From Botryllus schlosseri (taxonomy: Eukaryota): a DNA stretch of 64,000 nucleotides. The stretch lies in contig CM119372.1 in assembly GCA_051294905.1 (NCBI GenBank), positions 29,142,001 through 29,206,000 on the forward strand, in the 5' to 3' direction. Position 1 is the stretch's first letter; the number at the start of each line of letters is the position of its first letter. Below the pieces are notes generated by a model. It was not told the origin of the DNA, searched no databases, and was given only the letters and a program-made list of their open reading frames with translations. The translations under genes were made by a program, and so were the position numbers. This document shows positions 3,049-38,265 of the stretch, piece by piece.

Positions 3049-3071
3049 GGAACTAGTGAAGTATATGCCCG
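3049..3071. repeat. Left terminal inverted repeat, preceded by 8-bp TSD AAAAAATT
   Basis: Begins with GG and matches the reverse complement of 38243-38265 at 18/23. Confidence 0.8.
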
Positions 3072-3319
3072 CTTTACTCGTGTGTATGATTGACGTCATC
3101 CATCATGATTCCCCATGATCATTTAATTCAATTTCCTTATTCTATCATTTTAATCTCTTTTTTCTTCTCGTTCTCTCGTTTTTCTCGCACGAGTCAAAAA
3201 ATGCTGACTCAGCATTTTTTCTAGTTACGAGGTTTCAGTCTTTCCGTTTGCTTCCATTATATGGATTTTTCCGCTTTTCCCTCATTATGTCACATATTTA
3301 CACTCTGCCAAAAACAGCT

Positions 3320-6300
3320 CTAAATCTTTTGTATGACTGTGGGTGGTATAGGGCCTTCGCACAACACCACCTCTTGTACGTTTGATTGCAGCAGTACGAG
3401 TCCCTCATTCCTTAGATCTGCTGCTTTCATGCAAATTACCACATTTCGTTTTTTGCTTTTCTTCGTTATCGTTTTGCTCAAATGAATGAATCTTCTGTTC
3501 ATTCGTTCAATGCCTGCGGACATTATCTGTCTTGCATTGTTTTCGGTCGTCATGTGGTACAACACCTCGTTACCTTCATATTTACAGTACGGAGGGGGCA
3601 ACCCTTTTGTATGTCCATGGGCGGCCGCCAGACCATATTCCGAGGTTATTGCTCTGTCGCACCTTTGCATGACGCTCTGTATTTCGTCCATTTCCATTTG
3701 TTCCCCAGTTTTCTTTTGGAGGGCACCGTTAATATCTTCCCAGGGATGGAACCCGTCCACCGAGTTGTCACAAAGTTCATGTCGACAATGATACATCAGT
3801 GTCTGCTGTATTTTTTCCGGTCGGGGTCTTTCCTGTCGGTACGAAACGCTCTTTTTCTTGGGAATTGTCGCCCAAACATGTGGATCATCTTCTCCCGCAG
3901 CCATTTCCATCCAATAAGATCGAGACAATCCATCTGACGTAAATACCTGCATCGTACTTAAATGAATTACCTCTTTTATTTGGAATCCTGCGAGATGATT
4001 GAGCCACCTTTGAATTAGGGGTTTTGGGCTGGGATTTTTTGCTTTGTCCGTCATTCTTTTGAGTAGCCCAAATACCCCAGTATTATCAGTGATTATTGTA
4101 AAGGATAGGGCTCTCAACATTGACTGCCATTTTTCCACCGAATCCTTTAAGGCTTTCAATTCCTTTGTACATGGATCATAAGCTTTTGCCGTTGGAGTCG
4201 CCCATTTCTGACTGTAGTAAGCAATTGGGTAGACTTTTTCGAAAGGCGGCTTGCACCCCTTTTCCGTATAAAAAATGATTGATCCAAACCCAATATCTGA
4301 AGCGTCCGTTTCCACAAAAATGGGAAGATTTGGATCCAGATGGTACAGAACCTTAGCATCATCGAGGGCTGCTTGTGCCGTTTTGAAATCCTGCAGTAAT
4401 TCGTTGGTCCATAGCACAGGCGTCACTCGTCCTTGTGTCGCAGGAACCTTACCTGTCAGCGCATCGAATTTGGCCAGCTTCAAACTTAACTCAGGAATAT
4501 GTTCCGAGATATAGCGAAGGGCACCAATCCACCCCCGCAGCTCGTACACATTATGGGGTGGTGAGAGTTCTCGTAAAGCCCTTATTCTTTCGGGCTGAAC
4601 CTCAATCTCTTTCCCCGTCAAGGTTGCCCCCAAAAGGTTCACCCTTCGTTTCCCAATGAAACACTTATTTATGCTAACCGTTAGCTTCATCTTGGCAAGT
4701 TGTTCAAATACCATACGTAGCAGTAGCAAATGGTCCTCTACCGTTTTTGTGCTGAGAAAAATGTCGTCTATGTACGCCTCCATAGGCGTCGCATTCTCCT
4801 CATCCGGCCGGCCATTTTGCTTCATGTATTTACGATAATTTTCCGTTATTGGTTTCACCACGCATTCCTGCATATTCGCGCTCCAAAGAGCCACAGCAGT
4901 TTTAAGCCCCATCGGCATTTCACGCCATCTTACATGCATCCCTTTGATGGCTATACCCACATATTGTTTAGATCTTTCCGTTACATCCATGTGGAAATAG
5001 GCCTTCTTCAAATCAAGGAGAGAAAGCACTTCTCTGCCTTGGGCGAGCTGCTTTACGTCTGGTACAAGAGGTGGAGGTACTTCTATTGATTTTATGGCCG
5101 CATTAAGGGGTTGGAGATTCTGTACTACTCTCCAGGCTTGCTTCCATCCGTCCTCCTGTTTTTGTCTCTCATTCATTTTCTGAGGGACCACAAAGATAGC
5201 CAACTTCCATTCAGCAAAACCTCGTTCAATGACGCCCAAGTCCAGGAAGTTATCTACCGCTTCTTTCAATGCCTTTGCCTGGCCCTCCCCCTTCAGATTA
5301 TAAGGCCCAGACACAAATGGTTTCGTCGAGGGATCTTTAAGCTCGATGTCGCATTTGTATTTCATGGTTTGTAGAGCGCCAAGGTGGTCCCGTAGGTCCT
5401 CGAGTTCGGACGCGAACGGTGCGTAGATGGCTTTCCAGACATCATCAGCGATAATGGTATTTTCCGGAGTCGTCAGATCAGGAGGTTTGTATGGGAGTTT
5501 GGCCAGCGCTACCGATTGTGCACAGAGATTTTCGAGCTCCGTCTTGACACGTGGGTGAGTGTCTTTCTGTAAAACATACGTAGTGACTGGCCCAGTCATA
5601 GGCTGGTTTGAGATTCGTGATGACCGGGTTGTCGGTGTTGGTGGAGAGAGGGTGAGGTCCTTCGATGTAGGCCTCTGATCTCGGCGCGTGCCCGCACCTA
5701 CCGCCACGCCGACGGACTCCTTTTCCGCCGGGGACCCTTTTTCTGGGGAGACGTGCATCCTAAAATCCCCAGACTCCTTGTCGGACATATCCGGACGTGT
5801 ATCCGGCTGACCGGCAATTGCTGCTTCATTTGAACCTTTTGGGAAAGTACTCATTACTATGGTTGTCGTCATGCAACTATGGGCCGAATCATTAAGGTTA
5901 TTCGGACAAGTGCATCCACGAAAGCATTTAGGACCAGTTTTCTCGTGCAGGTCTTTATTCTCGCCAGCGGACATTCCACTCTGGATATCAGCTGTAGTAG
6001 TCGCCATGCATCTATGGGCCGGATTTTTATCGTCATCCGGACAAGTGCATCCGCGAGAGTGTTCGGGACCAGTTTTCTCGTGCAGGTCCATCTTTACGCC
6101 AGCGGGGATTCCACGCTCGACGTCTTCATTAACGGTGTCAGCAGGCATTCCTGTCTCGACACCTATAGTTTCCCTTGGGTTATGTGTGACGTTAGTTGCT
6201 AATATCAACTCGTCGCTCGTACCAGTGGTTATTTCCATCTCGGTACTCGCGCCAGCGGCAATTTTCCGCTCCACAATACTTTGTTTTGCAGCATCCATCA

Positions 6301-37034: not shown

Positions 37035-38006
37035 TTATGGTAATACAGGAGACCCATCAAATTTGTCAAAATTATACGGTGGGTCATTGTGTATGGTGCG
37101 TAGAAGTGCCATAAATCGGTCAGTTTTCTGATGTTGACGTTTCCACAAAAACTCCCCCACGTAATCGGCCAAAAGATGACGTGCTAGACCACGAGACCTA
37201 TGTAAATGATACTTGAGCTGGGACCAGCAACATTCCACGTCATTGGTATGGTGAGATGTCCTAGGGTCTTTAAACCAACAAGAATGGTCCACTACGCCGT
37301 GTATATAACCTTTTCCCCAACTCTCTATGCCCTTATAGGAAGGGTAGGCATCTGTCAGGATCGTGGATCCCTCTGCTACATTCTCCACTATGAGTTTTCG
37401 AAATACTTCAGCCGTTCTGTCGGCAGTAATCTCAATGAACATTTCTCCGGTAGCTTTATCTATGCCACCAAACCCCCAAATGGCTTTAACAGCTGGTCCT
37501 TTGCCCGAGGCAGCCCGGCGCTTAGCTAAGTGCGTTTCATCAATGATAACACAGCCTTTTTCACCTCCCAAACGTCGTTTATTCCTGCGAAATTCGGCCG
37601 TACAAATTTTTCGCAGTCGTCCACTCCAAGTGACCGTGGAACGTTGGCTAATCTCGGCTTCATGTGCTATTTGGGTTTGCAACGCGTCATGAGCCCAAAA
37701 ATAGAATAGCATCAATAATTTAGGAAGTGACACATTGCTGTTGGCAAATATTGAATACTTGCGTATGGTTGCCGTAGTATCACAAGGATTGCATCGCCAT
37801 CTGAACCCATCATCCACTATCGTTCTCCTTTCTTCTTTCATAATATGCGCACATCGTCGACACTTCATTTTCCTTACCAACAATCCGTGATCTCTCAGAA
37901 ATAGTACACAATCTCGCGTGTTGATTAGCGCACCCGATTTGATCAAACTTAAGACATTGTATGTTCTTCCCCTCGTATCTGTGCAAGCAAACAGCACCGT
38001 ATACAT
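37035..38006 (-). CDS. Merlin/IS1595 (ISXO2-like) DDE transposase, apparently intact
   Basis: Zn-finger CRRC..WRCNPC, HTH-like QTQIAHEAEISQRSTVTW, DDE motifs IIDETH, LTDAYPSY, HTNDVECCW, and EFLWKR. Confidence 0.93.
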   Translation of the reverse strand: MYTVLFACTDTRGRTYNVLSLIKSGALINTRDCVLFLRDHGLLVRKMKCRRCAHIMKEERRTIVDDGFRWRCNPCDTTATIRKYSIFANSNVSLPKLLMLFYFWAHDALQTQIAHEAEISQRSTVTWSGRLRKICTAEFRRNKRRLGGEKGCVIIDETHLAKRRAASGKGPAVKAIWGFGGIDKATGEMFIEITADRTAEVFRKLIVENVAEGSTILTDAYPSYKGIESWGKGYIHGVVDHSCWFKDPRTSHHTNDVECCWSQLKYHLHRSRGLARHLLADYVGEFLWKRQHQKTDRFMALLRTIHNDPPYNFDKFDGSPVLP

Positions 38007-38242
38007 GGTATGTCAAATCTCTACCGTCTCTCGTGGGACGAATGTCGTTTTTCTTGACATTACATCATTATTGCTTCTCTCCTATTTAATCCCGTACCGT
38101 TCATATGGCAGGGTCATTTCTTTCACTTGTTCCGTGCTAGACCTACTGCTTTTTTTACCCCTATTTCAATGTACATTGAAAACACTTACAATCCTTCCAC
38201 ACACCCACTTTCTGATGCAACTGTTATTGCCGTAGCAACCTC

Positions 38243-38265
38243 CGGGTACTTACTTCACCAGTACC
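38243..38265. repeat. Right terminal inverted repeat, followed by 8-bp TSD AAAAAATT
   Basis: Ends with CC and is the inverted match to 3049-3071. Confidence 0.8.

Follow-up and report, generated by a model that had tools for sequence, protein, structure and literature searches.

In a window of 64,000 nucleotides of Botryllus schlosseri DNA (assembly GCA_051294905.1, contig CM119372.1, positions 29,142,001 to 29,206,000), positions 3049-38265 hold a 35,217-bp element that is one copy of a multi-copy mobile family. All 19 of its ORFs lie on the minus strand, in the order transposase-envF-env2-cargo-gag-pol. In window coordinates, its features are:

3041..3048, no strand: target-site duplication, pol side; AAAAAATT, identical 8-mer at 38266-38273
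3049..3071, minus (the element's sense strand): right-end inverted repeat, terminus ...CC-3'; 18/23 against the other end
3072..3319, minus: right subterminal module with two ATTAAA, a purine-rich tract and a 12+12-nt palindrome at 3196-3220
3320..6928, minus: pol, with aspartic protease motif, RT, RNase H and a C-terminal Tpt1/KptA-like 2'-phosphotransferase domain
6868..9714, minus: gag-like ORF with CCHC zinc knuckle (Pfam E 5e-4, just under the Pfam cut-off)
6883..6889, minus: A_AAA_AAC slippery heptamer within the 61 nt shared by gag and pol, pol being in frame -1 relative to gag
10289..11658, no strand: MITE-like insertion with inverted and direct terminal repeats, window copy only
11672..11698, minus: spliced-leader (SL) exon, an exact 25-nt copy at 11674-11698, then GT
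11720..12041, minus: candidate promoter, a non-coding stretch conserved upstream of the SL copy; 74-89% identical to lineage B
12990..26501, minus: cargo block of 14 ORFs
13585-14040, minus: E2 enzyme (cargo)
15786-17537, minus: IAP with 3 BIR and RING (cargo)
18870-19805, minus: second IS1595-like transposase paralogue (cargo)
20426-21475, minus: LRR protein (cargo)
26502..30907, minus: ORF-poor spacer with a 136-bp tandem repeat at 30336-30597; no relic ends found in it
30908..34312, minus: env2, glycoprotein-like; paralogous to envF in its N-terminal domain, rich in Ser/Thr in the middle, with a membrane anchor at the C-terminus
34401..36899, minus: envF, glycoprotein resembling class I fusion proteins; RQRRKR with a hydrophobic peptide behind it, long helices and an anchor at the C-terminus (from secondary structure only)
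37035..38006, minus: IS1595/Merlin-type DDE transposase with N-terminal CxxC...CxxC (Pfam DDE_Tnp_IS1595, E 9e-10)
38007..38242, minus: left subterminal region, 5' of the transposase
38243..38265, minus: left-end inverted repeat, 5'-GG terminus; found in 10/10 copies
38266..38273, no strand: target-site duplication, transposase side; AAAAAATT

Ends, transposase and coding content

The ends are imperfect 23-bp inverted repeats, with 18/23 positions in agreement between 3049-3071 and the reverse complement of 38243-38265, and both start with 5'-GG, giving the form 5'-GG...CC-3'. They are framed by the perfect 8-bp duplication AAAAAATT. Within the 64-kb window a degenerate end motif is exact only at both element ends, and the remaining six of its eight matches (3 mismatches) are at chance level, with 6.6 expected. 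The left end recurs ~260 bp upstream of the transposase in all ten family copies read, each time with a different flank, and a right-end-related 21-mer has 122 genome matches at ≤3 mismatches vs 2 for a control. Perfect 8-bp duplications were present in 5/5 elements read at both ends (the window element, three B copies and one D copy), and 5'-GG inverted ends were seen in window, B and D elements. An initial annotation of this DNA had placed terminal inverted repeats at 3049 and 38265, two ATTAAA variants near 3122 and 3148 and, on joining the ends, about 530 bp between pol and transposase. The repeats, with their matching positions and target duplication, bear this out; the sense-strand ATTAAA signals lie at 3123-3128 and 3149-3154, 75-105 bp inside the right end; and the distances from the pol stop to the end (271 bp) and from the end to the transposase ATG (259 bp) sum to 530 bp. 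No LTRs (direct terminal repeats) were found, no direct repeat links both ends or flanks gag-pol, and neither internal copies of the termini nor relic ends were found within the element. Outside the target duplication, direct repeats at 369-1595 and 38542-40050 flank the element, and the surroundings are repeat-rich.

D156, D219 and E258 of the transposase, together with its four Cys, are invariant in 8 aligned sequences, and the D, D, E columns are retained in the cargo paralogue. PMC8101967 characterises Merlin elements by an IS1595 DDE domain, 5'-GG inverted ends and an 8- or 9-bp target duplication, and we found here a DDE domain, 5'-GG ends (imperfect, 18/23) and an 8-bp duplication. Pfam reported no Zn_Tnp_IS1595 finger, yet the four invariant Cys (CxxC...CxxC) precede the catalytic domain. 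Together, the 5'-GG ends and the 8-bp duplication show integration of the Merlin type, in which the transposase and no integrase inserts the element DNA.

Pol has Pfam matches to RVT_1, two RNase H models and PTS_2-RNA/Tpt1, and its DTG, YxDD, DAS and Tpt1 R-H-R-R columns are invariant in the pol-family alignment. Pfam detected no integrase (rve) family among the 19 ORFs. Integrase is likewise missing from the 6 closest public pols, and pol relatives found elsewhere have the same integrase-less layout of RT, RNaseH and Tpt1. Outside the family, the RT comes nearest to gypsy-type pols (20-29% identity), and RT identity to IMG/VR retroviruses and caulimoviruses is only 21-24%. Gag has no relative among solved structures. 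The combination of gag and PR-RT-RNase H with a frameshift signal, as in LTR retrotransposons and retroviruses, is present, the gag knuckle being sub-threshold. Almost no gag-pol expression was seen in the RNA runs examined (depth 0-0.45 over 3834-9169).

EnvF and the N-terminal domain of env2 are paralogous, as cross-matches in tblastn indicate, and envF lies directly downstream of the transposase everywhere in the genome. The name 'env' is given on architecture only: a hydrophobic stretch near the N-terminus, RQRRKR with a hydrophobic peptide behind it, long helices and a C-terminal membrane anchor. Pfam gave no match, a PDB profile comparison reached no better than E 0.47, and a fold model of an envelope-like ORF was unusable (pLDDT 39.5).

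The 25-mer in the leader region equals the 'Chordata 1' SL consensus in Table 1 of PMC3795323, and the host genome uses spliced-leader trans-splicing with this chordate spliced leader. The SL-containing 29 nt are identical in lineages A and F, and the motif is also present in B; the donor that follows is GT in A, F and B_C1 and GC in B_C12. A check of the intron after the SL copy for an Sm site and stem found AATTTTGG only in lineage A, and the SL-copy region has no Rfam match. Directly at 11698, 4012 RNA reads carry the template-switch oligo; these capped reads run on into sequences unlike the window copy. The MITE-like insertion is bypassed in contigs of other copies (joints 10280->11669 etc.), and one copy is without it.

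The initial annotation had read the element as TIR-transposase-env-accessory-PBS-gag-pol-TIR. The gene order and the TIRs stand, env holds at the level of architecture, and the internal PBS was not confirmed: no tRNA-complementary site was identified in the element, and ARAGORN found no tRNA genes in the window or in the other family loci analysed. The only strongly conserved leader element, at 11674-11698, was rejected as a primer site, being a sense copy of the spliced-leader exon. A TGG-containing hairpin motif is also conserved, but its indels differ between lineages.

Family copies and permuted gene orders

Of 31 transposase matches in the genome (84-100% identity), 28 have no stop; pol gave 70 scored matches and envF 59. 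Family elements range from 14 to 44 kb, and the smallest member (14,004 bp), with only the five core genes between its ends, shows that the cargo is dispensable. Across lineages the reading frames of gag, pol and the two env-like genes stay open, and they diverge in step with the transposase, down to 54% identity in pol and 38% in the transposase.

Two gene orders coexist in the same genome: Tnp-envF-env2-(cargo)-gag-pol in lineages A, D and F, which were read, and by match positions also in C and E, and cargo-gag-pol-Tnp-envF-env2 in lineages B and B2. At 7 loci pol is followed by the transposase within ~100-120 bp, and the four of these that were read all run pol, transposase, envF, env2; at three of the four, inverted ends of its own and a perfect 8-bp duplication enclose the whole unit. 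Furthermore, the transposase ORF of lineage B lacks an ATG in all three copies and lies in frame with pol, past one UAG and a 29-codon open linker. Window positions 3205-3259, which follow pol, are 87-89% identical to the right subterminal region of B, which there follows env2; at least the right-end module is homologous between the two orders.

The idea that the window order is a circular permutation of gag-pol-(integration enzyme)-env, also put forward in the initial annotation, is strongly supported by comparison with lineages B and B2, which show the predicted order. Homologous elements with unrelated gene orders had been named there as evidence against it; what the genome holds instead is exactly the order predicted. 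The reading that the transposase stands in for an integrase is supported as well, by the in-frame arrangement in B, which is where a retroviral Pol has its integrase. On the pol tree B2 clusters with E (89/86), and B falls with A, C and D (98/97). One clade of B and B2 is rejected with p-AU 0.00022, in an AU test whose group was chosen after the first tree was seen. The order changed at least 2 times on this tree, in which C and E were placed by their pol sequence alone and given gene orders from match coordinates. Pol followed by transposase, the order of retroviruses, looks derived on it and not ancestral, so that the place 'where integrase sits' is not an inherited one.

In one other copy, E2 and pol are 100% and 97% identical, but the transposase only 86% and envF 78%; the blocks therefore have different histories, as in modular recombination.

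How the element may be copied and inserted

We tentatively propose that this combination of a retro-module and a Merlin transposase is copied via RNA into DNA with abutted ends, which the transposase opens. The RT would copy element RNA into DNA whose right end lies directly against a left end, either as a circle or as a head-to-tail concatemer, and the right/left junction would be the site that the transposase opens for insertion; because the junction would be the opening site, its position on the circular gene map could shift harmlessly. The SL copy and GT upstream of gag would let cis- or trans-splicing provide the element's RNAs with a 5' leader like that of the host. An RNA stage is suggested by the intact RT and RNase H, the gag frameshift signal, the ORFs on a single strand, and the lack of LTRs and of internal end copies, without which the ends could not be rebuilt from a shorter linear RNA. 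Against the proposal, the ATTAAA signals lie inside the right end, so that RNA polyadenylated there on a linear copy would be without that end; nor were a PBS or relic ends found in the element.

A circular or concatemeric intermediate is plausible. The predicted junction of ends of the 3049 and 38265 type was not seen in the assembly, where an exact 10+10 motif of right end and left end within 30 bp was sought, and no head-to-tail pair occurs among the listed A-lineage pol and transposase matches. Permutation alone demands no circle, because moving the end pair needs as many breakpoints as a linear two-block swap, and module recombination could also give it.

Moreover, DDE transposases that act on inverted ends and leave duplications can relocate DNA by cut-and-paste with no RT step. 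A giant Merlin DNA transposon moving in this way only, with gag-pol-env captured for particle-mediated spread or another role and not for copying, is an unlikely but serious competitor. Its gene orders would have been permuted by recombination or by nested insertion of the blocks Tnp-env-env2 and cargo-gag-pol between conserved ends. The Merlin features of DDE domain, 5'-GG ends and 8-bp duplication are present, related terminal sequences occur in both gene orders, the two blocks differ in history among copies as modular recombination would have it, no end junction is found in the assembly, and the 14,004-bp member manages without cargo. However, gag, pol and both env-like ORFs stay open and co-diverge with the transposase, which argues for core functions; the lineage B transposase lies in frame behind pol, as for an enzyme delivered with the RT complex; a single strand carries all genes; and the inner-end remnants of nested insertion were not found within the element.

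Less probable still is an LTR-less retrovirus in which full-length RNA (spanning the linear copy end to end, from an internal promoter, with ATTAAA read-through) would be copied into blunt linear DNA whose ends the transposase joins, with no circle. In lineage B the transposase follows pol in frame as an integrase would, the short inverted ends resemble retroviral att ends, the RT and gag signals are intact, and in a single-cell RNA run the region beside the right end (3167-3833) has a sense depth of 3.9 vs 0.19 antisense. Against this, no way of priming is known that would copy the two outermost ends of a template lacking terminal redundancy, and no such redundancy was found in the element; the poly(A) signals lie inside the right end; and the equal viability of two gene orders is left unexplained.

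An artefact, either an LTR retrotransposon or ERV nested by chance in an unrelated DNA transposon or a misassembly, is extremely improbable: the window copy does have at least one later insertion (10289-11658) and a repeat-rich setting with flanking direct repeats, but the copy survey already contradicts this reading, since the architecture recurs in >30 places with different flanks, and the element contains no LTRs or integrase, the 14-kb member is five core genes alone between ends, and pol relatives elsewhere have the same integrase-less architecture.

Comparison with known systems

The element resembles Merlins, as PMC8101967 describes them, in its IS1595 catalytic domain with D, D, E, its 5'-GG inverted ends and its 8-bp duplication. 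Merlins have a single transposase gene according to that text, whereas the elements here span 14-44 kb with gag, pol, two env-like genes and cargo; Merlins are also described there as lacking the Zn_Tnp_IS1595 finger, whereas the transposase here has an N-terminal CxxC...CxxC and in one lineage is fused behind pol. Teratorn of teleost fish (piggyBac-like plus alloherpesvirus) is similar in that a DDE transposase and inverted ends frame a complete virus-like gene set (PMC6431247). According to PMC6431247 and PMC10175614, that set includes envelope and host-derived genes, and where the transposase lies among the viral genes varies between lineages, as it does here. The partner in Teratorn is, however, a DNA virus (41-182 kb) that brings its own DNA polymerase, in contrast to the reverse-transcribing gag-pol-env module found here, which is of Ty3/gypsy-like descent, and Teratorn uses a piggyBac transposase where this element has a Merlin one.

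With Ty3/gypsy elements and retroviruses that carry env (e.g., Tor of Oikopleura), the element shares a CCHC gag, a -1 heptamer and the PR-RT-RNase H order. It differs from them in having no LTRs, no integrase, a Tpt1-like pol C-terminus, up to 30 kb of cargo and no identified PBS, and in a target duplication of 8 bp against 4-6 bp. The pol-UAG-transposase arrangement of lineage B recalls the read-through expression at UAG of gammaretroviruses.

In DIRS-like retrotransposons the integrase is replaced by a tyrosine recombinase, and these elements are thought to integrate from circular DNA. The likeness lies in a reverse-transcribing element with another recombinase in place of integrase; unlike DIRS, the element has no tyrosine recombinase (Pfam) and no internal complementary region repeating its termini, and target duplications are present. 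Pararetroviruses (Caulimoviridae, Hepadnaviridae) have RT/RNase H without integrase and transcribe circular DNA into longer-than-genome RNA. The element shares RT/RNase H without integrase, and a circular template, as in the model of the initial annotation, would explain how its ends are maintained; pararetroviruses are not known to have a dedicated integration enzyme, inverted ends or target duplications, all of which are present here.

We found no description of such an element in the open-access literature searched. Reverse-transcribing elements are classified by their integration enzymes, which are an integrase (with LTRs), a tyrosine recombinase or endonucleases. This scheme would gain a new combination in a family whose gag-pol-env genes go with inverted ends and a DDE enzyme of the DNA-transposon kind, placed in frame behind pol in one lineage, and the family would give a second route, besides Teratorn, from a virus-like entity to a chromosomal transposon. 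A bolder reading, which we offer with more reserve than our tentative proposal of copying via abutted ends, is that the family represents a new order of animal reverse-transcribing elements or viruses. In this order a gag-pol-env entity would have lost LTRs and integrase, adopted a circular, pararetrovirus-like DNA, and come to enter and perhaps leave chromosomes by a Merlin DDE enzyme acting on the abutted ends; it would also have a Pol-transposase read-through fusion in one lineage, its own spliced-leader copy dressing its RNAs, and a Tpt1-type enzyme.

Natural circular permutations in one genome make it testable how retro-elements without terminal repeats keep their termini. Two more features stand out, the conserved spliced-leader copy and the Tpt1 domain fused to pol; for the latter, a search across 1.84 billion representative proteins gave no more than 36 matches at E ≤0.001.

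Boundaries and gene content of the element

The element is 35,217 bp long (window 3049-38265) and ends in imperfect inverted repeats that match at 18 of 23 positions and both start 5'-GG, with identical copies of an 8-bp target duplication, AAAAAATT, directly outside each end. In the 64-kb window the degenerate end motif has exact matches at the two element ends only, and the remaining six of its eight matches, with 3 mismatches each, are at chance level (6.6 expected). Nineteen ORFs of at least 100 aa were treated as genes, with domains assigned by Pfam, and all of them lie on the minus strand.

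Genes and intervals of the element, in sense order
37035-38006, minus strand: IS1595/Merlin-type DDE transposase (Pfam), first in sense order
34401-36899, minus strand: envF, glycoprotein-like, in which an RQRRKR site precedes a hydrophobic peptide; also long helices and an anchor at the C-terminus
30908-34312, minus strand: env2, glycoprotein-like, with an N-terminal domain paralogous to that of envF
4.4 kb: ORF-poor spacer between env2 and cargo
14 ORFs, minus strand: cargo block, including an LRR protein, an IAP, an E2 and a second transposase paralogue
Within the cargo, minus strand: IAP with three BIR domains and a RING
Within the cargo, minus strand: E2 ubiquitin-conjugating enzyme (Pfam)
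3.3 kb: leader between cargo and gag
6868-9714, minus strand: gag, with a CCHC knuckle
3320-6928, minus strand: pol, last in sense order

Pol is in the -1 frame relative to gag, with an A_AAA_AAC heptamer within their 61-nt overlap, and carries the protease DTG, RT YxDD and RNase H DAS motifs. Its C-terminus, at the place expected of an integrase, is a Tpt1/KptA-like RNA 2'-phosphotransferase domain. Pfam detected neither an integrase nor a tyrosine recombinase among the 19 ORFs, and we found no LTRs in the element, nor internal copies of its termini (DIRS-like ICR) or relic ends inside it. The pol stop lies 271 bp from one end and the transposase ATG 259 bp from the other, which together make the 530 bp that the initial annotation had given for the joined ends; the two ATTAAA signals that it had noted beyond pol are also present. 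Between protease and RT, pol contains a tandem 135-nt coding repeat (5857-6120, 79% identity) that duplicates a Cys/His-containing peptide. PDB profile searches with envF and gag returned nothing below E 0.18, and an AlphaFold2 model of envF from a 5-sequence alignment had a pLDDT of 39.5.

Merlin transposons are defined, in a survey of the superfamily, by a DDE_Tnp_IS1595 domain, ends starting with GG and 8-9-bp duplications (PMC8101967); the element has the domain, the GG ends and the duplication. The insertion is therefore of Merlin type, and it follows that integration is carried out by the DDE transposase. However, the transposase has four invariant N-terminal Cys in a CxxC...CxxC arrangement, whereas Merlins are described in the same survey as being without a zinc finger of this kind (PMC8101967). 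The second IS1595-like transposase in the cargo (18870-19805; also at a genome locus, L012, C1:24289719-24290588) keeps its D, D and E intact. This paralogue is ~40% identical to the terminal transposase, is retained within the cargo of lineages A and B (see below), and is always preceded by the o168 ORF.

Outside the target duplication, the element is flanked by collinear direct repeats (369-1595 and 38542-40050, 82-92% identity) that lay ~1.7 kb apart before it inserted and may belong to another repeat family or to a local duplication. The flank at 2500-3048 is a high-copy repeat (depth ~1900 in X1, a sequencing run of guessed kind), and 39060-44094 is a cluster of degenerate repeats built from GACTCGAGTCA-like palindromic units in direct and inverted arrangement.

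Copies and gene orders across the genome

A search of the 495-Mb genome with the transposase found 31 matches at 84-100% identity, of which 28 have no stop, and more distant lineages besides; pol gave 70 scored matches and envF 59. The left end lies ~260 bp upstream of the transposase in all ten copies read, every one with a different flank, and a right-end 21-mer has 122 genome matches at ≤3 mismatches against 2 for a control. We sorted the related groups into lineages A (the type of the window copy), B, B2, C, D, E and F. The minimal member, a lineage D copy of 14,004 bp on contig 13 with a perfect 8-bp duplication, encodes transposase, envF, env2, gag and pol only, which makes these five genes the core and everything else cargo. 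Across the lineages the retro-module is conserved and intact and has diverged together with the transposase. In the minimal lineage D copy (locus L042, C13:16459271-16459600) the transposase ORF lacks an ATG but is intact in other respects; in-frame stops lie upstream, and a pyrimidine-rich ...CACAG precedes it.

Two gene orders are found in this family. At seven loci, four of which were read, the transposase follows pol within ~100-120 bp. The three lineage B copies (L013, L018 and L023; 38,267-44,155 bp long) have the order cargo, gag, pol, transposase, envF, env2, with cargo that includes homologues of four window cargo ORFs and the second transposase; their pol is 74% and their transposase 62% identical to that of the window. 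Each of the three starts 5'-GGTTC... and ends ...CTAGTTCC-3', and their 8-bp duplications are perfect (AAACTATT, CAAAGTTC and GAAAATTT). Lineage B2 has the order pol, transposase, envF, env2. The initial annotation had held that joining the element's ends restores gag-pol-(integration enzyme)-env, and this is the order found in B and B2. Lineages A, D and F, read directly, and C and E, from match positions, are transposase-first, and envF directly follows the transposase in every lineage where both were found.

The right-end repeats of the two orders share their first ten bases, and window 3205-3259, which lies after pol, has 87-89% identity to the lineage B right subterminal region, which there follows env2. 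Given ends that are related across both orders, the inner blocks transposase-envF-env2 and cargo-gag-pol have changed places while the ends were conserved. Seen on a circle, such a swap equals placing the end pair elsewhere, and the gene map is circularly permutable. One copy on contig 1 (~15.45-15.49 Mb) is 100% identical to the window in E2 and 97% in pol, but only 86% in transposase and only 78% in envF; judged by these identities, blocks recombine among copies.

All three lineage B copies also lack an ATG ahead of the conserved N-terminus of the transposase, and in all three pol and transposase share one frame, split by a single UAG and a 29-codon stop-free linker. This arrangement suggests, as its simplest reading, read-through yielding a Pol-transposase fusion, with the transposase in the role of a substitute for integrase. 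The transposase has its own ATG in B2, A and F.

In a tree built from the RT-RNaseH-Tpt1 region, for which six public sequences served as outgroups, F falls at the base, and both F and the public protein P0001 have long branches. The tree joins B2 to E (89/86) and groups B with A, C and D (98/97), C and E being represented by pol only. Forcing B and B2 together, a group named for the AU test after the first tree had been seen, lowered the log-likelihood by 45.4 and was rejected (p-AU 0.00022). In agreement with the tree, envF identity to the window is ~30-36% for B2 and E and 55-59% for B. On this topology, with a minimum of two gene-order changes, the retrovirus-like order looks derived, and the switch occurred more than once or reverted.

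The leader and RNA evidence

The initial annotation had also placed a PBS in the interior of the element, but we identified no tRNA-complementary site; ARAGORN, run over the window and the loci read, listed no tRNA gene. A single leader element has been kept in deeply diverged lineages: a block of 29 nt that A and F (54% identical in pol) share at 100% identity and that B has too. A reading of this motif as the major splice donor or as the PBS gave way to that of the host spliced-leader (SL) exon, which RNA reads and literature showed it to be. The reverse complement of a template-switch oligo stands directly at 11698 in 4012 bulk-RNA reads, which places the 5' end of capped RNAs there, on the sense strand of the element. 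The 25-mer at 11698-11674 is, verbatim, the 'Chordata 1' SL exon consensus in Table 1 of PMC3795323. Genome-wide it occurs 282 times at ≤1 mismatch, against 0 for a control, and GT directly follows it in lineages A and F and in one B copy. Upstream of gag the element thus has an exact copy of the host SL exon with a donor-like GT, ~0.6 kb from gag once a MITE-like insertion is discounted. This copy may be a functional SL RNA gene, an initial exon in RNAs of the element itself, or a relic; an Sm-like site accompanies it in lineage A only, and Rfam families were found neither in the window nor in four SL loci.

Among the other SL loci read in the genome (L049-L052 and L133), three form a ~1.8-kb tandem arrangement, have no GT right after the 25-mer and possess, farther downstream, a common segment that complements part of the exon, resembling an SL-RNA stem. 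The MITE-like insertion (10289-11658), 14 nt downstream of the SL copy, has 25-28-nt inverted ends and 43-59-nt direct subterminal repeats and is specific to the window copy; its family is very abundant, with a word depth of ~3000 in X1 and X2, a second run of guessed kind, against ~100 for the element. The block that A and B conserve best (11829-11892, 88-89%) is tandemly repeated in B and also occurs in abundant RNAs of the single-cell run, which on both sides run on into unrelated sequence (loose-end agreement 0.94-0.99). A trans-splice acceptor pattern, pyrimidine-rich AG ≤60 nt upstream in 9 of 18 ORFs, was dropped as it had no control.

Reads from four runs (bulk RNA, single-cell RNA, X1 and X2) were mapped on 2500-22499; coverage in X1 and X2 is even over the whole stretch and is not usable as expression. 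The read pile at 11664-11698 stems from SL-bearing capped RNAs, which run on into sequence unlike this copy and thus attest to the leader in the host rather than to expression of this locus. Over 3834-9169, bulk and single-cell RNA depth is 0-0.45, too low to read junction RNAs or splice patterns or to discriminate among the mechanism models. Next to the right end, the single-cell run has a small sense signal (depth 3.9 vs 0.19 antisense). In two bulk-RNA reads the end of the SL exon (11674) is joined, with 29 other letters in between, to 3895, a position immediately upstream of the Tpt1-like domain in pol; these could come from a trans-spliced sub-genomic RNA or a host Tpt1-like mRNA, two reads being too few to choose.

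Models of mobility, and relatives of the element

Of the mechanisms considered, we rank first, tentatively, the RNA-templated copying of the element into DNA with abutted ends. Element RNA would be copied into DNA in which the two ends abut, as a circle or a concatemer, and this junction would be the substrate for the transposase. Such copying would explain how an element without LTRs or end copies keeps its ends, why all genes lie on a single strand, why both gene orders are viable and why the end pair is found at either block boundary. Against it count the lack of an abutted right-end/left-end junction in the assembly and of relic ends inside the element, and the fact that moving the end pair on a circle takes as many breakpoints as a linear block swap. 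Pure DNA cut-and-paste, in which the retro-module serves spread or another role and modular recombination, of the kind read from the contig 1 copy, gives both orders, comes second and is somewhat doubtful; the retro-module that it would have to accommodate is the conserved, intact one that diverges together with the transposase. A full-length linear RNA copied into linear DNA, whose ends the transposase would join to the target, ranks third and is unlikely. Chance nesting or misassembly, ranked fourth, is contradicted by the copy survey and highly improbable.

That a retro-element can exchange its integrase for another enzyme has a precedent in DIRS elements. In the open-access literature searched, we found no element in which a Merlin-type transposase and inverted ends go together with RT, gag and env. 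Conceptually the closest analogue is Teratorn (PMC6431247), in which a piggyBac transposon is fused to a herpesvirus.

The close public relatives of pol are only six unnamed protein clusters (36-45% identity); a Tpt1 domain is precomputed for four of them, and the R-H-R-R catalytic columns are invariant in an alignment of the window pol with all six. For the transposase, public proteins gave four hits. Next come ordinary gypsy pols at 20-29% identity, and these comparisons place the element's RT as a deep, integrase-less offshoot of Ty3/gypsy-like pols. Searches of IMG/VR returned only retroviruses and caulimoviruses (21-24% identity, 10 loci), and JGI metagenomes only gypsy-like pols (22-27% identity, 80 loci kept). 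The pol-fused Tpt1 domain is rare, with 36 matches at E ≤0.001 in a search of 1.84 billion representative proteins. These include three long proteins resembling pol, together with several short fragments closest to the query, and most others are 175-230 aa long, the size of stand-alone Tpt1 enzymes, at 24-37% identity.

An argument from intronless captured genes was dropped, most E2 homologues in the genome being single open frames. Some E2 homologues are themselves repeated. At least 20 dispersed units consist of a tRNA gene and, ~80 nt on, an intronless E2 ORF 54-57% identical to that of the element (e.g., C2:36471178-36471765, C1:20442643-20443230 and C11:4524078-4524726), which looks like another repeated unit, and E2 paralogues form a tandem array at C1:34.12-34.49 Mb.
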